This document shows, piece by piece, positions 7,041 through 38,900 of a stretch of DNA of 64,000 nucleotides. Source of the stretch: Candidatus Oxydemutatoraceae bacterium (lineage in GTDB: Bacteria > Pseudomonadota > Gammaproteobacteria > Poriferisulfidales > Oxydemutatoraceae); NCBI GenBank assembly GCA_965218975.1, contig OZ244717.1, positions 704,001 to 768,000 of the forward strand. The letters are read 5' to 3'. The position numbers were made by a program, and so were the translations under genes. Each line of letters starts with the position of its first letter. Position 1 is the stretch's first letter. The notes beneath the pieces were generated by a model that saw only the letters and a program-made list of their open reading frames with translations, did no database searches and was not told the origin of the DNA.

Positions 7041-7829
7041 CTATTCACTCCACCTCGCTCTCATCGCAGACACTTCCCGCGCAGAAAAGAAATGTTGCGT
7101 GTGTTTATGGTTGCATATTTGATCTGTGTATTCAGGGGAGAACTTAATTCTTTGTTTCATTTCCTGATATACCATTGCATCAGGGTCCAGCCTGCTTTCT
7201 CTGTAACGCATAATTTCCAACCGGTTCAGCCCAAGAAACTCCCTGATAATCCTACTTTTTTTATCATCGTCCAATTCCGTTCTGAGCACCAGTAAGTTGA
7301 CTTTCTTTAGCAGATGATGATTAGTCTGGGTGTAAATCCTGTATCCGATTTCAGTGGAAAAAGGCGCGGCATAAACGTCAATACCAAAGCCGTTTTTCAT
7401 TTCCTGGTTAAACCATTCCAGCGATCGCGTTATTCTATGTTTGGTCCGCCGTTTCCACACGCTGATGTCTGTGGAAGGCGTACTTCCCCTTTTATTCCTC
7501 TCTGGAATCATAAAGAAGAATACAGCCGACAAGGCTCTCTCAATCGGATTTCGCACCAAGCTGATCAAGTAGTATGTATCGGAATAAACAAACACTTTTT
7601 TCGGGTCCATAATTCCTTGAAAATCATGCGCTTGCGCTACTGCGATTAACCTTGTATGGCCTAAAGATCTTTTTAATGATATGAGGATTGACGTCGAACC
7701 GGCTTTTGGTATCGTATAAACAATGATTGAGCTATGATTGAATATTTTATAAATAGCCCTGAATATCCGGGGCCTCCATGGTCGTAATATGGTTTTCAGT
7801 TTTCTGGCAGGTGTATGGTTTAGAAGCAT
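7041..7829 (-). CDS. Sulfotransferase-like putative capsular polysaccharide synthesis protein (NKWYS-like)
   Basis: PKAGSTS (5'-PSB loop), LVRNPIERALS (3'-PB), WFxxExK...GIDVY; start uncertain (7829 or 7865). Confidence 0.65.
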   Translation of the reverse strand: MLLNHTPARKLKTILRPWRPRIFRAIYKIFNHSSIIVYTIPKAGSTSILISLKRSLGHTRLIAVAQAHDFQGIMDPKKVFVYSDTYYLISLVRNPIERALSAVFFFMIPERNKRGSTPSTDISVWKRRTKHRITRSLEWFNQEMKNGFGIDVYAAPFSTEIGYRIYTQTNHHLLKKVNLLVLRTELDDDKKSRIIREFLGLNRLEIMRYRESRLDPDAMVYQEMKQRIKFSPEYTDQICNHKHTQHFFSAREVSAMRARWSE

Positions 7830-7857
7830 AGCAGCGGAAAGTATACAGCAAATGTAT

Positions 7858-7886
7858 AGTGCCAAATGTTTCTGAGCTTATGCACA
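7858..7886 (-). repeat. 29-bp inverted repeat (partner 942-970)
   Basis: Reverse complement of 942-970 with one mismatch. Confidence 0.8.
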
Positions 7887-7888
7887 GG

Positions 7889-8770
7889 TGTATACTGCCG
7901 GACACATATGGGACTCACGGCTTAACTCAAAAAGGTGACCGATATGTAATATCAACACATCGGCCACCGCATCAAAGGTTTCTATATGAGCCAATTTAGC
8001 TTCAAGAATGGAGGCTCATGAGCGCTCTAAACTTCAACAGAAATATGATGCCCTATTATTTTGGGAGGGTTGTAACTCCCGAACGCATTCAAGGTCGGTC
8101 GCAGTACTTTGTCCCGCTGGCGCCTACGTTATCGCCGCATTGGACTCAGTGCATTGCATGACCGCACCAAAGCGCCGCGCAAGAGGCGTCAGCGGACCTG
8201 GCCGCAACCGATTCAGTGTGAAACCGTTTTGCGCTTGTTGGTGGATTGTCGGCAAAGTGCCTGTCGTCCATGACGCGACTGGGTTCTGTCAACAAGCCCC
8301 AGCCCCGACGTCCTTGTCGGGTCGTTCACCGCTGAAAACCAATTGGTTTTCCGGGCGCGTCTCACCCATGACGAGACTTGGTTCTGTTAATGAGCATCAG
8401 CCCCGACGTCCTTGTCGGGTCGTTTGCCCGGAAAACCGATCGGTTTTCCGGGCGCGTCTCACCCTGCGCCAAGCTCATTCGAATCTCGGCAGCAGTAAAA
8501 TCTTTGAGCTGATGAAACCATTTTGTATTTGCTGGTGGATTTTCAGCAAAGTGCCTGTCGTCCATGACGCGACTGGGTTCTGTCAACAAGCCCCAGCCCC
8601 GACGTCCTTGTCGGGTCGTTCACCGCTGAAAACCAATTGGTTTTCCGGGCGCGTCTCACCCATGACGAGACTTGGTTCTGTTAATGAGCACCAGCCCCGA
8701 CGCCCCTGCCTGTGAGTACGCAGACAGGTTTGAGGTCCTGCAAGAATCCCATTTAGGGTGGCATCGTGCA
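7889..8770 (+). mobile_element. Decayed IS481-like element with interior replaced by A/B repeats
   Basis: Left end TGTATACTGCCGGACACATATGGGA, right end TCCCATTTAGGGTGGCATCGTGCA (imperfect IR); ATG-TAA at 7944; shifted-frame NAFKVGRSTLSRWRLRYRRIGLSALHDRTKAPRKRRQRTWPQPIQCE. Confidence 0.72.
8220..8702 (+). repeat. Array A'-B-B-A-B-B' (B = 97-98 bp structured unit, A = 99 bp)
   Basis: B at 8268-8365, 8366-8462, 8562-8659 and partial from 8660; A at 8463-8561. Confidence 0.9.
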
Positions 8771-8897
8771 CAAGGACGCGCTGGCCCAGGACGAGAAGAA
8801 AGCGCCGGTCAAACTGGCGAAGAAGGAAGCGACGAAAGCGGGATAGCGCTAATAAAGAGGAATTGGACGCCACGGCTCGCTTCCATCGCGAAAAAGT

Positions 8898-9266
8898 CTA
8901 GACTTTTCTCGATTGGATTCCGACTACCAGCGCCACAACGTTCATTACCGATGGCACGAATGGGATGATTCCGAAGAACATGTCAAACAAGCCGCCTAGA
9001 ACCGGGAAGAGGGTAAGCCATCTCCTGTCCGTCGCCTTCCCGCGCAAATAACATGCTATGGCCATAATCGCGTAGCAAATCGCCAAGTAGGTGATTCGTA
9101 TCGTGCCCGCGTCCCCAATCGTGCTGTCATCAACAATCGCGACGACCAGCAACATTCCAGATAGATAGGTGAAAGCCGCTGGCACAAGGAAAAGCAGCAA
9201 GAAAACGCCGATGCTTTCAGACCCTCTTTCCTTAAGCGGCTGCACAGATTTGGTTGTATCGTTCAT
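8898..9266 (-). CDS. Small integral membrane protein, unknown function
   Basis: 122 aa, 3-4 hydrophobic helices, GAGG RBS upstream. Confidence 0.65.
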   Translation of the reverse strand: MNDTTKSVQPLKERGSESIGVFLLLFLVPAAFTYLSGMLLVVAIVDDSTIGDAGTIRITYLAICYAIMAIACYLRGKATDRRWLTLFPVLGGLFDMFFGIIPFVPSVMNVVALVVGIQSRKV

Positions 9267-9466
9267 TTCATTACCTCAGTTAGTTTGCACGTTCGTTCGT
9301 CGTTCAGTTTGCGACGTCCCCGAACCCGTTGAGAGACACCTCGAAAGTGTGTTTTTCGTCCCCGTGCTTGGTTCGCATCTTCGCGACACTGCTGGTCTTG
9401 AATTGATTCTATCACCGCTCGGAGCGTCGCATTGTCTGCGATAAGCTCGTTCGGATACTTGTCCCT

Positions 9467-10804
9467 TGTATAGCGCCGGATACATACGGGACTTACGGCT
9501 TAATCTAAATCGGTTTGTCGTTTCAGGGGAAACTACGGACCGTCGGCCGGTAACATTTTGTGTCGCCGGGTTCAACGCCTTGCAAGACCGCGGCAAAACG
9601 CCGCGCAAGAGGCGCTGGCGGGTCCGGACAGAATCTCGGCAGCAGTAAAATCTTTGAGCTAATGAAACCGTTTTATGTTTGCTGGTGGATTTTCAGCAAA
9701 GTGCCTGTCGTCCATGACGCGACTGGGTTCTGTCAACAAGCCCCAGCCCCGACGTCCTTGTCGGGTCGTTCACCGCTGAAAACCAATTGGTTTTCCGGGC
9801 GCGTCTCACCCATGACGAGACTTGGTTCTGTTAATGAGCACCAGCCCCGACATCCTTGTCGGGTCGTTCACCGCTGAAAACCAATTGGTTTTCCGGGCGC
9901 GTCTCACCCTGCGCCAAGCTCATTCGAATCTCGGCAGCAGTAAAATCTTTGAGCTGATGAAACCGTTTTGTGTTTGCTGGTGGATTTTCAGCAAAGTGCC
10001 TGTCGTCCATGACGCGACTGGGTTCTGTCAACAAGCCCCAGCCCCGACATCCTTGTCGGGTCGTTCACCGCTGAAAACCAATTGGTTTTCCGGGCGCGTC
10101 TCACCCTGCGCCAAGCTCATTCGAATCTCGGCAGCAGTAAAATCTTTGAGCTGATGAAACCGTTTTGTGTTTGCTGGTGGATTTTCAGCAAAGTGCCTGT
10201 CGTCCATGACGCGACTGGGTTCTGTTAATGAGCACCAGCCCCGACGTCCTTGTTGGGTCGTTCGCCGCTGAAAACCGATCGGTTTTCCGGGCGCGTCTCA
10301 CCCTGCGCCAAGCTCATTCGAATCTCGGCAGCAGTAAAATCTTTGAGCTGATGAAACCGTTTTGTGTTTGCTGGCGGATTTTCAGCAAAGTGCCTGTCGT
10401 CCATGACGCGACTGGGTTCTGTCAACAAGCCCCAGCCCCGACGTCCTTGTCGGGTCGTTCGCCGCTGAAAACCGATCGGTTTTCCGGGCGCGTCTCACCC
10501 TGCGCCAAGCTCATTCGAATCTCGGCAGCAGTAAAATCTTTGAGCTGATGAAACCGTTTTGTGTTTGCTGGCGGATTTTCAGCAAAGTGCCTGTCGTCCA
10601 TGACGCGACTGGGTTCTGTCAACAAGCCCCAGCCCCGACGTCCTTGTCGGGTCGTTCGCCGCTGAAAACCGATCGGTTTTCCGGGCGCGTCTCACCCTGC
10701 ACTGTCCTCATGCCGGCAACGGACAGAAAGCACCGATCCGAATGTTGCTGCCGAACGCTTCTCCCGAAGCTCTTTAAAAATCCCATTTAGGGTGGCATCG
10801 TACA
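9467..10804 (+). mobile_element. Decayed IS481-like element containing the 197-bp tandem array
   Basis: Left end TGTATAGCGCCGGATACATACGGGA; ALQDRGKTPRKRR fragment; C-terminal LH(C)PHAGNGQKAP fragment; right end TCCCATTTAGGGTGGCATCGTACA. Confidence 0.72.
9631..10695 (+). repeat. Tandem array A'-B-B-(A-B)x4, period 197 bp
   Basis: B at 9712-9809, 9810-9907, 10007-10104, 10204-10301, 10401-10498, 10598-10695; near-identical A units between. Confidence 0.92.
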
Positions 10805-10813
10805 TCCGAATGC

Positions 10814-10822
10814 TGCTATACT
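10814..10822 (+). promoter_or_regulatory. Candidate extended -10 promoter (TGcTATACT)
   Basis: TGnTATAcT 10 bp after IS end and ~37 bp before ATG; GAGGGAG RBS at 10848-10854. Confidence 0.4.
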
Positions 10823-10858
10823 ATAGAGTGTCATGACATAACTTTATGAGGGAGTTTT

Positions 10859-13800
10859 ATGCTGCGTAATATCGCTCTCATGCAAGTAGTTCTACTGGAT
10901 AAGAACAGTAAAATTCTTTTGCTTGGTGTTTTGTCAGGTTTATTTTTAGCAGGAACGAGGTTGCAAGCGCAAGAGACGAGCGATACTTTAACCATCATGA
11001 CCATGTCGGTTGACCCGGCATTAAACGCTTTTGAGGAGAGTGTCACTGTAAAGGAACATCAGCCTTTCTTAGTTTTCACGACATATACCGCGCAAAGGCT
11101 AGCGACTGAAAGCATGAATTTGAGCCTTGAAGTCACTCGGGAGGACAGTACAGTTTTGCCTGCCGGGGATCTCCCCGACGACGGTTTGAGAAAAACCCTG
11201 ACAGTAACCACTGGGACGACGACACAGTCTTTTCTGCAGCTGGGGTTTGCACCGGACTTAGACGAGAATGCGGATTATCAGTACCGTTACTGCGCGGCGA
11301 ATGGTACCTGTTCGTCTACGTTGACGGTGAGTTACTTAACGGCTGAAGCGCCGACGACTGATGTCACGGCAATCAGTCCGCGCTGGAAGGATGTCCTCAG
11401 CGATCAGAGTGTAATCACCGGCGACTGTTTTATAGGTTCGAACGTTGAGACGGTTGCAAATCTCACCCAAGAAAATAACACAGTCCGCTTCGGGCGTATA
11501 GCTCGCGTTGATAACATGCTTCCGCCGCGCGGCGGTGTGTCGGGTTTGATGTATTCATTTGGGTTTCTCGAGGATGATTTTTCCGATGGTACTTATGGCG
11601 AGATTGCTTCTGGCAGCTTTGACGCCTCAAAGCAGGAGTTAGCGCTTAGCGCCAAATGGTGGTGGACCAACGGTTCGGATTCGGCAGAACCGACGTGTTC
11701 GGGTAGTTACACGAGGACTTTAACGCCGTTGCCGGCAACCGTTCCTGAAACCGCGACGACGCCTAGCGCTCCGCTAGACGTGCAGGTGCAAGTGCCTGAA
11801 GAGCCGTTTAGAGTAGTTACTTGGTCTGTGCCGGATAATGACGGAGGAGCGCCGATTACCGCTTATCGCATTTACTGGAGAAAAACCGACGAACAACAAG
11901 AGCAATCAGAGGTGGTTTTCACAAATATCCATTCCTTTTTAATAGAAATTGATCCCGATGCGGGTTATGTATTTGCGGTGACGGCATGGAATGAGCTTGG
12001 TGAAGGTGAACGAAGCGCTGCCGTCTCGCCGCCGGCATCGCCGATATCTTTGACCGCGACGCCGGGCAACGAGGGGGTAGGATTGGAGTGGGCGCCGCCG
12101 GGAGATATCGGCGGCAGCGCAATCACGCATTATCAATATCGGCAGAGAGCCGGCAGCGAGGATTTCGGTCAATGGATAAATATTCCGGACAGCGATGATG
12201 CAGACAGCAACGCCGGTAACGAGACGCGTTCTACGGTCACCAGTTTGACGAACGGCATCGCATACACCTTCCAAGTGCGCGCGGTCAACGTCGCGGGCGC
12301 GGGCGAGGCAACCGACGAAGTAACGACGATTGCGGGAGAGGTTGGCATTTGCGATCGCACACCGCAGGTTCAAGAGGCGATTCTCAACGCGCTTCCCAGC
12401 GTAACCGACTGTACGGTGGTAGCCCATATCAATCTGAACTCCCTCACCGGGGAGTTAGACTTGATCGGCAAAGGAATTACTGCTCTGAAGGTAGGAGACT
12501 TCGTCGGACTCGCTACTCTGACAACGCTGGGTTTGGGGGCCAATCAATTAACGAGTCTGCCTGCGGGCGTATTTGATGATCTTATCTCTTTGACAACGCT
12601 GGGTTTGGGGACCAATCAATTAACGAGTCTGCCTCCGCGCATATTTAATGATCTCAGCTCTTTGACAACGCTGGATTTGGGGTCCAATCAATTAACGAGT
12701 CTGCCTCCGCGCGTATTTGATGATCTCAGCTCTTTGACAGAGCTGGATTTGGGGTCCAATCAATTAACGAGTCTGCCTCCGCGCATATTTGATGATCTCA
12801 GCTCTTTGACAGAGCTGGATTTGGGGTCCAATCAATTATCGAGTCTGCCTGCGAGCGTATTTGATGATCTTGGCTTTTTGATAATGCTGGATTTGGGGTC
12901 CAATCAATTATCGAGTCTGCCTGCGGGCGTATTTGATGATCTTGGCTTTTTGATAATGCTGGGTTTGGGGTCCAATCAATTATCGAGTCTGCCTGTGGGC
13001 ATATTTGATGATCTTGGCTCTTTGAGGACGCTGTTTTTAGATAGAAACAAATTATCAAGTCTGCCTGCGGGCATATTTGATTCTCTAAGCTCGCTGGAGA
13101 TTCTAATTTTGAACGTTAACGCGTTAACGGAGATGGGGTTGCCCGACAGCATATTCGAGCGCCTCACGTCGCTTATAATAATTAGTTTTTTCAGCAATCC
13201 CGGCAGTGACTCCTTCGTACCGTCGGCGGATGCCGGGTCCAACCGGACCGTTGACGTCGGCGAAGTCGTTATGCTGGATGCTACCGCTACCGACGCCGGT
13301 CCGTTCGGGAGCAACGTGAGCTTCGCATGGTTGCAGGACGAAAGCGATAGCGTGTCTGTGACGTTAACTGCTACCGCTACCGTTATGCCGACGTTTACCG
13401 TGCCGGCAGGCACGCCGGACGGGACGATGTTCCGATTCGATCTGGAAGTGATCGGCGGGAATAAGTTTGGGACTCTTGATGATTCGTTTCGACAGGGTCT
13501 GACCGACCGCGACTCAGTGAGGGTAACGGTTAGAATACCGCCTGGCGCGCCAACGTCCTTGACGGCAACGCCGGGTAACGGGCAGGTAGAATTGGGGTGG
13601 GTACCGGGCGACGTCGGCGGCAGCGCGATCACGCATTACCAATATCGGCAGAGAGCCGCCGGCGAGGGTTTCGGCGCTTGGACGAATATCTCGGACAGCG
13701 ACGATGCGGGCAGCAACGCCGGCAACGAGACGCGTTCTATAGTCACTAGTCTGACAAACGGCGTCGCATACACCTTCCAAGTGCGTGCGGTCAACGCCGC

Positions 13801-34613: not shown

Positions 34614-35002
34614 CTTGACTTCGTAGGTTTTGTCTCGTAAGTGATTGATATTATTGCCTTCAGGATTCTCAAGGGCACTACATACGCGGATACGGTGTTG
34701 TTTGTAGCCCTCCGCGCTCAGCTTCCCCCAGGGCGTGACTTGTCGGGAAGCGGGAACGGAGCTTCGTTCCATTTCAGACCTACGCTACGGTAGATCCTGT
34801 TGGCGTCCGCGCTCGCGCGGCTCGGTATCGCATACCGCTCCTATGTGTCGGTATGTACCAAGATGCTCAACTGCAAGGTGTCCAGCTCGCGCTGGATCCG
34901 CTCCGCGCTCATCGGGAAGCCCAGCGCCTTAAGCCGCCGACACAGCTGCTGCAAGCAGCAGAAGGCCATGTAGCAGATCGCAATGTGTGCGCGGATGCGC
35001 CG
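34614..35002 (-). mobile_element. IS1634-like transposase C-terminal remnant with right end
   Basis: RRIRAHIAICYMAFCCLQQL...MSAERIQREL...LSILVH*ERYAIPS...IYRSVGL, TGA at 34718; tgtagtgcc...aagtcaag end; IHF-like TATCAATCACTTA at 34638-34650. Confidence 0.65.
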
Positions 35003-35267
35003 GATAAAATGCGCCGTGTTCCGCAGCGCACGAATGCAAAAGGGCAAACAAAACGACTGTTCAAGCGCCGTTGCAGGGCACACAAGCCGAAAGACTTCAA
35101 AGCACAGTATCCGGGGCCATTGCATCGCCCTAGATACAATTGTGCGTTATCAGCACGGGATGCGCCGCACCGTCTTAACGGCCATCGATGTCTATACCCG
35201 AATGGCAATAGCAGTGGCAACCAACCGCTGTAACAGCCGCAACGCAGCCGCATTTCTGCGCCTGGCA

Positions 35268-35446
35268 GAATTTCGGCAGCAGTAAAGTCTTTGAGCTGAT
35301 GAAACCATTTTGTGTTTGCTGCCGGATTGTCGGCAAAGTGCCTGTCGTCCATGACGAGACTTGGTTCTGTCAATGAGCGCCAGCCCCGACGTCCTTGTCG
35401 GGTCGTTCGCCGCTGAAAACCGTTCGGTTTTCCGGGCACATCTCAC
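35268..35446 (+). repeat. A'-B insertion 1 within transposase
   Basis: B at 35349-35446; transposase resumes at cctgacggac (LTD). Confidence 0.9.
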
Positions 35447-35653
35447 CCTGACGGACGGCGGTAGTGAGTTTCAAGGACAGTTTGCCCAGCTCATCCGGGA
35501 ATCGCTCGCGATTGAGCAGTGGCTGACCTATCCCAAGTGTCCAAAAATGAACGCGCACATCGAGCGCTTCAACCGCACTGTCCAGGAGGATTGTATTGAT
35601 CATGCAGAAGATCTGCTATTCGCCGATACGGAAGCATTCAATGACCGGTTATG

Positions 35654-35798
35654 GAACCGTTTTGTGTTTGCTGCCGGATTGTCGGCAAAGTGCCTGTCGT
35701 CCATGACGAGACTTGGTTCTGTCAATGAGCGCCAGCCCCGACATCCTTGTCGGATCGTTCGCCGCTGAAAACCGATCGGTTTTCCGGGCGCGTCTCAT
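35654..35798 (+). repeat. A'-B insertion 2 within transposase
   Basis: B at 35701-35798; transposase resumes at cctgcaccgt (LHR). Confidence 0.9.
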
Positions 35799-35932
35799 CC
35801 TGCACCGTCCTCATGCCGGCAACGGACAGAAAGCACCGATCCGAATGTTACTGCCGAACGCTTCTCCCGAAGCGCTTCAAACATCCCATTGCCGGTGGTG
35901 GTATTATATAGCGTGCAGGCTATCAGCTTTAT

Positions 35933-35941
35933 TGCTATAAT
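35933..35941 (+). promoter_or_regulatory. Candidate extended -10 promoter (TGcTATAAT)
   Basis: Perfect TGnTATAAT 20 bp upstream of ATG 35961. Confidence 0.5.
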
Positions 35942-35960
35942 AAAAACAAAAACTATTATT

Positions 35961-38900
35961 ATGCGTTTTTCTTGTATACGTACTTCGGTCGGCATATGCT
36001 GCATACTGTATGCTTTATTGATACAGGCGCAGCAGACTCAGCCCGCAGCTCCCAGCAACGTAGAAGTTACACCCGGTGACAGACAGATTACCGTGACCTG
36101 GCAGTCCCCGGCCGAGGGAACCGGCGGCCCGGTTGCAGACTACCGCATCGGTTGGACTCCGCCCGACGGCATCGGCAGCGCGACTGTCGCAGCAGATGTG
36201 AGCGAATATACGATCGAGGGTCTGACCAACGACACCGAATACACAATCGAAGTCGCAGCCGTCAACGCAAGCGGCGCGACTAGCGCAGTAGCCGTGATCG
36301 AGACCCCGATCGCACCGCTGCCTTTGCTGCCCGGTGCGCCGACGACTTTGACGGCAACACCGGGTAACGGGCAGGTAGAATTGGAGTGGGCGCCGCCGGA
36401 AGATATCGGCGGCAGCGCAATCACGCGTTATGAATATCGGCAGAGAGCCGCCGACGGGGATTTCGGTTCATGGAAGATTATCCCGGACGGCGATGATGCG
36501 GACAGCGATGCTGGCAACGAGACGCGCTCTACAGTCACTAGTCTGACGAACGGCATCGCATATACCTTCCAAGTGCGTGTGGCCAACGCCGCGGGCCCAG
36601 GCGAGGCAACAGATGAAGTAACGACGATTGCAGGAGCGGGCTTGGGTATTTGCGATCGCACACCGCAGGTTCGAAAGGCGATTCTTAACCGGCTTTCCGG
36701 CATAAGCGACTGTGCGGCGGTAACCGATGCCGATCTGAACTCCCTCGCCGGGGAGTTGAGCTTGTCCGAAAGAGAGATTGCCTCCCTGAGGGTGGGGGAC
36801 TTTGAGGGGCTCGTTACTCTGACGACGCTGAATCTGAGTTATAATTCGCTATCGAGTCTATCTGCGGGCATATTTGATGGTCTTGGTTCTTTAATCGGGC
36901 TGAATTTGGGGAACAATCAATTATCGAGTCTGCCTGCGGGCGTATTTGATAATCTTGATTCTTTAACATGGCTGAATCTGAGTTTTAATTCGCTATCGAG
37001 TCTATCTGCGGGCGTATTTGATGGTCTTGGTTCTTTAATATGGCTGTCTTTGCTGATCAATCAATTATCGAGTCTGCCTGCGGGCGTATTTGATGATCTT
37101 GGTTCCTTAATAAGGCTGAATTTGGGGAACAGTCAATTATCGAGTCTGCCTGCAGACGTATTTGATAATCTTGATTCTTTAACATGGCTGAATTTGTCGG
37201 TCAATCGATTATCGAGTCTGCCCGACGGCATATTCGAGCGCCTCACGTCGCTTGAAATAATTTTTTTGATGTATAATCCCGGCAGTGACTCCTTCATACC
37301 GTCGGCGAATGCCGGATCCGACCGGTTCGCTGTCGCCAGCGAAGTCGTTATGCTGGACGCTACCGCCACCGACGGCGGTCCGTTCGGGGACAACGTGAGC
37401 TTTGCGTGGTCGCAGGACGGAAGCGATAGCACGACTGTAACGTTGACCGGCGCCGCTACCGCCACGCCTAGGTTCACCGTGCCGGCGGACGCGCCGGACG
37501 GGACCGTGTTTCGATTTGATCTGACAGTGATCGGCGGGAATAAGTTTGGGACTGATAAGCTTGGGATTCTTGAAGATGATTTCTCTCGGCAGAGACTGAC
37601 AGACAGTTCCTCGGTGAGGGTAACGGTTGCGACGCCACCCGACGCGCCGACGGCACTGACGGCGACAACGCACAACAGTAGTGTGGATCTAAGTTGGAAC
37701 GCACCTGCCGACCCCGGCATTGCGCCGATCAGCCATTACGAATATCGCGCGAGCAGCGACGCCGGAACGGTTTGGGACCCGAACTGGACGATCGCCGGTG
37801 ATGCGACGAGCGAAGTCAGAACTCAAATCGTGTCGGGCTTAACCAACGGCACGGAATACACATTTGAAGTGCGGGTGGTCAGTGCGGTAGGCGCCGGCGC
37901 AGCCGCGCGCGTCACGGCGACACCGAACGTGGCGATATTCACGGTCTCGTTTGATCCGATAGACTATCCGACCAATGAAAGTGAGGGAAGTGTAATTCTC
38001 ATGCTCAGACTGATCGGCGAAAGACCGTTGCGCGGCGATGTAACCGCTAATGTCTCGACAAGCGAAGGGAGCGCATTCGCCCCTCATGATTATGTCGAGC
38101 GTAGTAGTGTTTCTGTTTCCTTTACGCTTGCTTCACCTGTGCCGCAACCTGTGACGATTTCTATTGTCGATGACGACGTTTTTGAACCCGATGATGAGAT
38201 ATTTTCGGTGATCATTACCGATGTATCGGCGGCGCATCGTGACGATGAGGCGGTGATTGATCAGAGCGAAGCGACGATTACGATCATCGACAACGATGAT
38301 GCGCCGGTATTGTCCCTGTCGGTCGGCGCAACCGAAATCAATGAAGGCACATCAACCGATGTTGTAGTAGAGATGACGGCGACATAATCGGCGAGGATTA
38401 CGATCATCGACAACGATGATGCGCCGGTATTGTCCCTGTCGGTCGGCGCAACCGAAATCAATGAGGCGCATCAACCGATATCGAAGTGGGAATCACGAAC
38501 GAATCGGTATATGCCGAAGATCAAACGATCGCGTTAGAGTTTACCGGCGATGCGATGTTTGACCGGCGATTCGCCGTTGTCGTGTATGAGTTGATGCATC
38601 TACGGCAAGCAACGATCATAGCGACAGACGACCGAGCGGACGAGACGGATGAAATGATTGAGATAACCGCGCGGCATGACGGCGACATAATCGGCGAGGA
38701 AACGATTACGATCATCGACAACGATGATCGCCGGTATTGTCCCTGTCGGTCGGCGCAACCGAAATCAATGAAGGCGCATCAACCGATATGAGTGGGAATC
38801 ACGAACGAATCGGTATTTGCCGAAGATCAAACGGGTTAGAGTTTACCGGCGATGCGATCTGAGGGACTATATGGCGACGATTCGCCGTTGTCGTCGCCGT

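Follow-up and report, generated by a model that had tools for sequence, protein, structure and literature searches.

A folded repeat with one fixed end in IS481-family elements of a Candidatus Oxydemutatoraceae genome: a member of a class-wide family of structured repeats

Introduction

Short and long interspersed nuclear elements (SINEs and LINEs) insert by target priming, a process that yields a precise 3' end, variability at the 5' end, transduced flanking sequence, and target duplications or deletions of variable size. Some eukaryotic elements of the SINE/LINE type form tandem head-to-tail copies and show a preference for tRNA genes. One-ended rolling-circle transposition, as known from IS91 and the insertion sequence common regions (ISCRs), leaves one end fixed at a short motif and a variable other end that carries flanking DNA, and gives rise to tandem products. 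Repetitive extragenic palindromic (REP) sequences, together with bacterial interspersed mosaic elements (BIMEs) and REP doublets forming hairpins (REPINs), are small, hairpin-rich, strand-specific extragenic repeats moved by the REP-associated tyrosine transposase (RAYT), a Y1 enzyme of the HUH type. In Escherichia coli, rtT RNA is released from the tyrT transcript.

The present report concentrates on B, a folded repeat of roughly 115-145 bases with one sharply fixed end, which is found in a 64,000-nt stretch of DNA (denoted as the window) from a Candidatus Oxydemutatoraceae bacterium (assembly GCA_965218975.1, contig OZ244717.1). The window covers positions 704001-768000 of a closed 2.081-Mb genome (G000) with 47.7% G+C and 99.4% completeness, and B interrupts insertion sequences (ISs) of the IS481 family in it. 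A preliminary description, made from the window, had regarded B as a mobile element with a fixed 3' and a variable 5' end that preferentially targets IS481 and is mobilised by a reverse transcriptase (RT) or an HUH enzyme encoded elsewhere. This description is partly supported: it was right on the junction signature, wrong on the targeting of IS481, and unsupported on the enzyme. By sequence and predicted fold, B belongs to a family of small, strand-specific structured repeats of about 95-140 nt that extends over the class, and the copies in this genome are mainly explained by descent as passengers of the IS.

Units, ends and joints of B

A sensitive blastn search with B gave 328 matches genome-wide, 320 of them at least 40 nt long and distributed over 194 blocks. 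The 3' end (query positions 140-146) is kept in 315 of these 320 matches and truncated in only five; the 5' starts are scattered over many B positions. About 17-20 different 3' joint classes occur, every one at ..GTCTCACCC. The genome-wide tabulation of 3' targets and 5' starts thereby bears out the fixed 3' end and the variable 5' joints with donor flank. The view of B as a non-autonomous repeat that causes target deletions (described below) and is devoid of the hallmarks of DDE cut-and-paste transposition is also upheld.

The ends defined by a regular expression (225) were classed by hand, by eye from the listing, into 103 tandem joints, 101 ends at four sites of the host IS, 11 nested deletions, in which the B end runs directly into the 3' region of the host IS, and ten others in five further contexts, one of them a second IS481 subfamily. 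The tandem joints enter the following unit at position 48 (69 joints; ..CACCC followed by ATGACG), at position 40 (29 joints), at position 4 (four joints) and at position 79 (one joint); the starts at 40 and 48 are genuine head-to-tail joints. The four host sites, named here after the residues encoded next to them or after A, a segment of host coding sequence carried along with B, account for 39 (LHRPH), 32 (LRQ/A), 18 (LTDGG), and 12 ends (downstream of A). Start classes 15, 19, and 22 were considered as discrete 5' truncations and rejected, being mostly an artefact of an 11-nt minisatellite in the 5' arm. This minisatellite (CGGATTGTCGG / CGGATTGTGCC) is variable in copy number and separates the carried flank from the core unit (e.g. 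window 35672-35690).

B is almost confined to IS481-derived DNA in this genome. Among the few B pieces outside this context is an array at G000:C1:1035012-1035693, with three tandem copies of a period of ~302 bp that contain B positions 69-144 only and have non-IS sequence on both sides.

The joints recur in contigs of four public runs from three studies, as do three fillers of the empty LHRPH site and the tandem joints; one of the runs may be the source sample, and the reads were compared as contigs only. The anatomy of B is therefore not an assembly artefact of this record.

Within the window, B is confined to 8222-8721, 9666-10697, and 35303-35800, as had been noted before. The same three stretches are returned by blastn and by R1 (12 matches), a covariance model built without any B sequence, from other genomes only. 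A 50-nt piece of B was found twice, with a chance expectation of 0.00. The pattern TCTCA[CT]CC marks B ends at 8367, 8464, 8661, 9811, 9909, 10106, 10303, 10500, 10697, 35448, and 35800; its matches at 11468, 15857, and 16901 are unrelated repeats inside a giant open reading frame (ORF) and not B. Directly 3' of the ends stand ATGACG (8367, 8661, 9811), TGCGCC (8464, 9909, 10106, 10303, 10500), TGCAC (10697, 35800), or TGACGG (35448). All 11 ends thus comply with the rule, formulated in the preliminary description, that CCTG or CCATG follows (TCTCA(C/T)CC and then TG.. or ATG..).

The reading frame of the IS481-family element around 35268-35802 is interrupted twice, both times by B. The host of both inserts is a 5'-truncated element at ~35001-35900 (+ strand, delimited by its coverage profile), whose right end reads ..CCCATT.. 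with a degenerate terminus in this copy. At the LTDGG site it carries an A+B insert (35268-35448, + strand, R1 match of 51.5 bits), consisting of a carried A flank (~35268-35302, about 35 nt) that stems from the N-terminal LRQ..ELMKP region of the IS, the B 5' arm, and a core unit at 35334-35448 with the end TCTCACCC. The B copy of this insert (35303-35448) precedes LTDGGSEF, and about 36-40 nt of host sequence are replaced. The copy at the LHRPH site (35654-35800, + strand) encompasses carried flank and 5' arm (35654-35685) and a structured core unit (35686-35800; R1 match of 57.5 bits, E 4.7e-11) with the end TCTCATCC. It sits between ..FNDRLW and LHRPH in the place of 22 nt of host sequence.

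An IS481-derived element at 9467-10804 (+ strand, genome pair 713467-714803) harbors an (A+B) array. Its left inverted repeat (TGTATAGCGCCG..) and a short N-terminal remnant are followed by five A+B units of period 197, one of which holds an extra 97-nt core unit, and then by the segment from LHRPH to the right end; R1 matches lie at 9697-9811, 9813-9909, 9992-10106, 10189-10303, 10386-10500, and 10583-10697. The match at 9813-9909 (+ strand, 31.3 bits) is a 5'-shortened core unit, corresponding to B positions 48-144, that is joined head-to-tail to the preceding B end (..TCTCACCC followed by ATGACG..). The stretch 9910-9960 (+ strand, CTGCGCCAAGCTCATTCGAATCTCGGCAGCAGTAAAATCTTTGAGCTGATGA) exemplifies the A segment, i.e. 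host IS481 coding sequence (LRQAHSNLGSSKIFELM) carried between B units. A short IS481-derived element at 7889-8770 (+ strand, genome pair 711889-712769, R1 matches at 8253-8367 and 8547-8661) shows the order left inverted repeat, N-terminal remnant, B with core unit, A, B with partial core, and right end.

Four 5' points had been listed for these copies and interpreted as GAA-containing entry points into A. All four are real, but they are of different kinds, namely a deletion joint (8220), a deletion into A (9631), an A+B insert (35268), and the joint of the LHRPH site (35654), and the GAA common to them has no demonstrated meaning.

Empty sites and carried flanks

The pre-insertion sequence of each site was taken from B-less copies of the host IS elsewhere in the genome. 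The LHRPH site is empty in 5 of 48 copies (..CGGTTATG GGAGTATTTAGCCTGGTATAAG CTGCACC.., WEYLAWYKLHRPH), and the 22 nt that B replaces are those in ..TTATG[22 nt]CTGCACC. The site downstream of A is empty in one of 64 copies (ATGAAACCGTTTTG CCATCGCCACCAGCTGCT CTGCCCAAG), and B takes the place of 18 nt there. At the LRQ site, the host sequence ..CGGAT [33 nt] CCTGCGCC is converted into ..CGGAT followed by TGTCAGC..B..CACC and then CTGCGCC, with a loss of 33 nt. The LTDGG site, empty in 2 of 25 copies (..FLRLTLAVLPPPVKYILTDGG), has lost about 36-40 nt. The observation that the insertions show no target duplication and remove a few codons is hence confirmed by the B-less copies, with 18 to about 40 nt replaced at four sites.

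All B copies open with the sequence AAACCGTTTTG, which belongs to the host at the site downstream of A but is encountered at the LHRPH site too. The LHRPH copy therefore came from the site downstream of A, together with 11 nt of donor flank, and entered at a shared ATG. The LTDGG site has one 3' joint and two 5' joints: 14 of 25 copies are of type 1, in which A+B enters at CTGCGCC, and six of 25 are of type 2, with CCGCAACC as flank. In the LTDGG copy at 1056468 the joint falls inside the TGACG of the next unit. Microhomology amounts to 3-7 nt at entry joints and to 1-4 nt (..CC, CTG) at exit joints.

Descent of B copies with the host element

The host IS has terminal inverted repeats of the TGT..ACA type, with TGTA(T/C)AGTGCCA.. 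on the left and ..TGGCATCGTACA on the right. The 39 left-end and 85 right-end matches yielded 26 pairs, three of which are bordered by a 5-bp target duplication. These are the B-loaded copies at 87450-89042, 485030-486862, and 1255776-1257568, with the duplications ATCTC (one mismatch if read as 6 bp), CCCTT, and GCGCC. As the duplications surround B-loaded ISs with a dead transposase gene, those copies moved as units. In 165 of 166 blocks, B points in the same direction as the right end of the IS closest to it; a further 28 blocks have no right end within 2.5 kb. The genome contains ~80 IS481-like copies, and deletion derivatives are numerous. Eight weak rve matches and no intact transposase gene were found genome-wide; the best open frame measures 246 aa. 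A B-free 181-aa ORF piece from another copy matches NF033577 (IS481 family transposase) with an E value of 5.6e-21 and 75 bits, short of the curated cut-off of 224; this is the best of two families for this piece.

The same joint with the same deletion is present in 43 of 48 copies, which indicates descent or gene conversion and not repeated independent insertions. The few events at new sites are all internal to this one IS family, keep its orientation, and show microhomology, as would be expected if aligned copies of the IS had served as templates for one another; target recognition is not required. The proposed preferential targeting of IS481 had to be given up, since the same joints recur in dozens of IS copies by descent and the B-loaded ISs carry 5-bp duplications of their own. 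The family explains why the IS481 copies of this genome are interrupted at identical places.

A different repeat at window positions 34621-35000, with ~22 genome copies, directly adjoins the IS481-like copy, whose 5' part it truncates, and it also interrupts one B copy at reverse-strand position 1165977. Two large ORFs on the + strand, one of 7842 aa (10859-34387) and a second from 35889-38387 onward, directly follow IS481-derived elements. Both show near-identical internal duplications and, as read from the translation, repeated modules that we take to resemble fibronectin-III, leucine-rich-repeat, and cadherin domains.

A class-wide family of structured repeats

As DNA, B has no match in 40 relatives, and its 3'-end pattern gave no match in two public collections, one of genome contigs and one of metagenome contigs. 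The motif of its first hairpin was found at four loci in three other genome records, a Pseudohongiella metagenome-assembled genome (MAG) and two Pseudomonadales MAGs. These MAGs harbor a 125-nt intergenic repeat, with 40-90 matches listed per genome and tandem arrays included, that aligns to the B core from GTGC(A/C)TG.. to ..CTCACCC; a third hairpin of this repeat is missing from B.

An alignment of 28 units from these MAGs displays a five-helix structure of 31 pairs, in which 98.4% of the cells are paired. Nine pairs show compensatory changes on both sides (57 cells), none of 500 shuffles reaches the score, and sliding the alignment by 1-3 columns leaves only 31-44% pairing. G.U pairs are found on one strand only (e.g. 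25/28 at pair 10:23), and so the folded form would be RNA or single-stranded DNA (ssDNA) of the ..CACCC strand.

The model R1 matches B with up to 77.2 bits (E 4.2e-14 genome-wide), the 12 window matches ranging from 31 to 67 bits. R1 matches were obtained in 3 of 53 genomes of the order and in 26 of 151 genomes of a class sample with one genome per family, which includes this genome and the unpublished G195, and several of these carriers possess many copies and arrays. B is consequently not specific to its setting, as had been assumed, because its core is recognised by a model of the class-wide family. Members of the family share the end ..G(T/C)CTCACCC, a pair of hairpins whose loops read (C)ATCC(N)TG, the linker CGTTCG, and a long-range helix that closes the structure.

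As far as found, the family is apparently undescribed. It lies outside Rfam 15, which gave no match at E<=5 over window positions 7800-10900 and only chance-level matches, away from the element, at the loci L020, L022, and L031; a narrow literature search retrieved no description of it. Plasmids gave no blastn match to a unit. In viral contigs, R1 had no match in 80 loci taken from more than 118 16-mer pattern matches, a number at about chance level by estimate. A group II intron remnant, 4.5S RNA, 5S RNA, and a tRNA-like gene were considered for B and discarded, as the resemblance does not exceed a few bases.

Behavior of the family in other genomes

A tRNA gene is located at 11 of the 14 best-hit loci from diverse genomes, 7-300 nt away and always on the 5' side of the element; a random 3-kb locus is estimated to hold a tRNA gene about 5% of the time. 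The arrangement is divergent at seven of these loci, and at three or four the element lies downstream of the tRNA gene and on its strand. Six of the 11 tRNA-linked loci (L058, L061, L063, L064, L067, L068) adjoin a tRNA-Ser gene with a GGA or GCU anticodon, which is more often than expected from the share of tRNA-Ser among tRNA genes.

Direct repeats of 15, 16, 17, 20, 24, 24, and 25 nt flank the element in 7 of 16 loci, and none of 200 shuffles gave repeats as long. At six of these seven loci it is a tRNA-gene end that has been repeated. Such tRNA-end copies have their 3' joint after ..CC inside the tRNA (D-loop or T-arm), and the 5' joint is situated just outside. In G008, a unit of 18 nt of the tRNA-Lys 5' end, an 11-nt spacer, and the element is present three times, with CACCC joined to AACTGAG. 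This array corresponds to the (A+B) arrays, with tRNA sequence in the place of A. The flanks of the tRNA-linked copies of G004 and G008 are rearranged in G012, G016, and G018, which thus yield no orthologous empty sites.

The arrays of Pseudohongiella-type genomes have joints into the first hairpin (..CACCC followed by ATCC..). A further repeat module (GTCATTCCGCGCGGAGCGAAGC.. / ..CGCAGAATCT....GGGATTCTG) is positioned upstream of many units in L033 (1380-1500) and similar Pseudohongiella-type loci, which identifies the intergenic regions of these genomes as mosaics of several repeat families.

Mobilising enzymes and alternative explanations

According to the preliminary description, B would be a retroelement-like or rolling-circle element with IS481 as its target, and its copying would be the work of an RT (target-primed) or HUH enzyme whose gene lies elsewhere. 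The joints are in line with such a process: the 3' end is precise, the 5' end variable, upstream flank is carried along, and target bases are deleted. Moreover, other lineages have flanking repeats of variable length (15-25 nt), similar to the target duplications of LINEs and SINEs, and the ..CC overlap at the 3' joint could represent pairing of primer and template. The enzymes themselves, however, were not detected. In G000, searches for RVT_1, Y1_Tnp (PF01797), the IS110/IS1111 DEDD transposase (PF01548), and TnpB (PF07282) gave no match; Y1_Tnp was likewise absent from the matches in the carriers G004, G008, G041, G042, and G043 (0/6 carriers in all). Y2_Tnp (PF04986) gave no match in G000 either, which is uninformative because 14 control genomes were equally silent. 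An RT is present in 3 of 11 carriers tested and was not found in the other eight, which include seven multi-copy carriers (G041-G043, G080, G128, and G173 among them). In the 151-genome sample, 8 of 26 carriers possess an RT compared with 43 of 125 non-carriers, so that RT is not commoner in carriers. As the genes were not found here and RT is not enriched, it is unlikely that RT or Y1 drives the copying in general. In addition, the recurrence inside IS481 is accounted for by descent, and HUH elements leave no target duplications. The whole proposal of an enzyme encoded elsewhere that targets IS481 is therefore regarded as improbable.

To the same low degree it is credible that B is not mobile at all, i.e. 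that it entered an IS once and that everything else was brought about by IS transposition, unequal crossing-over, microhomology slippage, and gene conversion among the ~80 IS copies. Microhomology is indeed found at every joint examined, CTGC(N)CC is common to several host sites, and the LTDGG joint at 1056468 inside the TGACG of the next unit, the 11-nt minisatellite of the 5' arm, and the many deletion derivatives are in accordance with slippage. Random slippage, though, should truncate both ends alike, while only 5/320 matches are without the 3' end and 5' joints are many. B is also present at three or more further sites with donor flank attached, which is impossible by deletion alone, and fixed-end, flank-carrying arrays and long flanking repeats arise independently in other genomes.

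The units might further be primarily functional structured RNAs or processing signals under selection, whose copy number is a side effect. This view, compatible with the other readings, would agree with the compensatory changes in nine pairs, with G.U pairs on one strand only, with motifs kept across 26/151 families, with the tRNA gene adjoining 11/14 loci, and with the identical layout of the E. coli tyrV-rttR repeats. As the primary explanation it is nevertheless very unlikely, given that both orientations relative to the tRNA occur, that the units here are situated inside dead transposase genes, and that no Rfam family was matched. Least probable, by a shade, is an ordinary miniature inverted-repeat transposable element (MITE) with two defined ends, moved by a DDE transposase of IS481 or another element, whose monomers would be half-elements from one-ended events: head-to-head units in G167 do provide outer inverted ends (ACAGGATTAAGCAGGGCGAGCC..) and full-length units in other genomes have a fairly constant 5' start, but the monomer has no terminal inverted repeat (GTGC(A/C)TG.. 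and ..CTCACCC are not inverted copies), targets have lost 18 to ~40 nt in some places and gained duplications of 15-25 nt in others, without a single length, and the B end is only weakly like the IS right end when compared by eye.

Three further candidates for the origin of the joints were rejected. The cut positions of a type IIS restriction site (GTCTC) do not fit the B end, integron attC-like or Xer-type conservative recombination leaves the target deletions unexplained, and for a Tn3-type inverted repeat the common motif is on the wrong strand.

Proposed origin and copying of B

It is proposed, with slightly better than even confidence, that the B units of this genome are explained by a fold-defined copy-choice or target-primed process that followed one ancestral landing in an IS481-family gene. 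The ancestor would have been one copy of the family that landed in the transposase gene just after the codons for ELMKP. The ~320 present units would then have been generated by three processes: transposition of the defective, B-loaded IS in trans; head-to-tail amplification of core units and of A+B units; and a small number of copying events, inside one IS copy or from one to another, each replacing 18 to about 40 nt of the recipient. The stretch copied in the third process would begin at a variable donor point upstream, thereby carrying A or AAACCGTTTTG, and end exactly at the 3' terminus of B.

In such an event, a strand being synthesised along the recipient would leave its template at a short match, corresponding to the microhomology of the entry joints, and enter the donor upstream of or inside the element, which accounts for the carried flank. 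After the element has been copied through, the closing helix would form, the product would fold, and a free tail (..CTCACCC) would be released; this step we infer. The tail would pair with a nearby ..CC on the original template, in agreement with the ..CC overlap seen at the 3' joints. Depending on the place of landing, three outcomes are expected, and all three are observed. Landing ahead of the departure point would lead to loss of target bases, as in the IS here, landing behind it to their duplication, as at the tRNA ends, and landing in the element's own upstream flank or first hairpin to a head-to-tail array. The template switch as such is inferred, and its intermediate may be DNA or RNA. 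One may speculate that tRNA genes are preferred as sites because stalling occurs at these highly transcribed genes.

Several points weigh against this copy-choice scheme. The same joints would arise from capture of cDNA or ssDNA; in particular, cDNA primed on a nicked target would give identical joints, and only the missing RT argues against it. The genome may have lost a mobilising enzyme, may encode one in unrecognisable form, or may have received it from a plasmid or phage. The 5-bp duplications are present in just 3 of 26 pairs, and B could likewise have been brought into IS copies by gene conversion once these had transposed. The joint-class tallies were made by eye from listings. In Pseudohongiella-type genomes, long flanking repeats were found at none of 21 solo copies and a tRNA gene at none of 26 loci, which suggests that the family may spread in more than one way. 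Finally, units in G167 (L079-L084) are arranged head-to-head in palindromes of ~290 bp within AT-rich flanks, and these inverted dimers, with their longer inverted-repeat-like outer ends, look like a MITE or REPIN form.

A bolder version of the proposal, held only tentatively and rather doubtful as a whole, would make the B family a bacterial counterpart of SINEs that needs no RT. Copying would be of the target-primed/template-switch kind, with a structure-set ..CACCC end that pairs with ..CC of the target, homes on tRNA ends with duplications of 15-25 nt, and can colonise and disable ISs, the copying itself being done by a host polymerase or an unrecognised enzyme.

If the proposal is true, one small structured family accounts for tRNA-linked repeats in many gammaproteobacterial-type genomes, as well as for neighbor-carrying tandem arrays and for the fact that an IS481 family has been silenced in a genome of 2.08 Mb. 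The family represents a tractable case for asking if DNA or RNA, once folded, is able to drive its own duplication when no dedicated transposase takes part, and R1 provides a sequence-defined marker for tracing such duplication events. The fixed-end, flank-carrying mode of duplication deserves experimental follow-up.

Comparison with known systems

Prokaryotic MITEs resemble B in being non-autonomous, about 100-300 bp in size, present in many copies, and able to sit in other mobile elements. The B monomer, in contrast, has no terminal inverted repeats and no fixed target duplication, and target deletions occur. The text of a MITE survey (PMC11602168) contains nothing relevant on tRNA-linked, tandem, or IS481-associated repeats or on repeats without target-site duplications.

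With IS91/ISCR, B has in common one fixed end beside a short motif, a variable end that carries flank, and tandem products. Unlike what is seen there, the flanking CTG is not kept in other lineages, where flanking direct repeats exist; Y2_Tnp was not found in G000, with a control that was silent too. REP/BIME/REPIN systems are similar with respect to mosaic clusters, arrays, and, in some genomes (G167), inverted doublets. They differ in their link to RAYT, as Y1_Tnp was found in 0/6 carriers, and in their size, the B unit being 3-4 times longer than a REP and equipped with a long-range helix. REPs are not known for long flanking repeats or for deletions of the target, both of which occur in the B family.

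The 178-bp repeats of the E. coli tyrT/tyrV-rttR locus (rtT RNA) are, like the family, head-to-tail units downstream of a tRNA gene. Each unit carries the last 14-19 nt of the tRNA, and the joint (..AATCC followed by TTCCCCC) comes after CC. This layout resembles that of G004, G008, and G167 and, with an IS481 flank instead of the tRNA, that of the (A+B) arrays. R1, however, does not match this locus (7 bits at most) and thus lends no support to homology. The short strings GCTTCGAC and GTTCGACTC are, by eye, common to the E. coli locus L078 (NC_000913.3, 1286640-1287340) and the family consensus; they may hint at a distant kinship with tyrV-rttR, which R1 does not support. The passages on rtT in one preprint (bioRxiv 10.1101/2024.07.17.603846) are of a general nature.

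Compared with target-primed retroelements, the B family corresponds in its junction pattern, and no RT was found in the genome or with the element. While it differs from SINEs and LINEs by the lack of a detected RT partner, by the lack of an A-rich or simple-repeat tail, and by its bacterial host, it shares with them the precise 3' end, the variable 5' end, the carried flank, duplications of 15-25 nt or deletions of the target, tandem copies, and a preference for tRNA genes.

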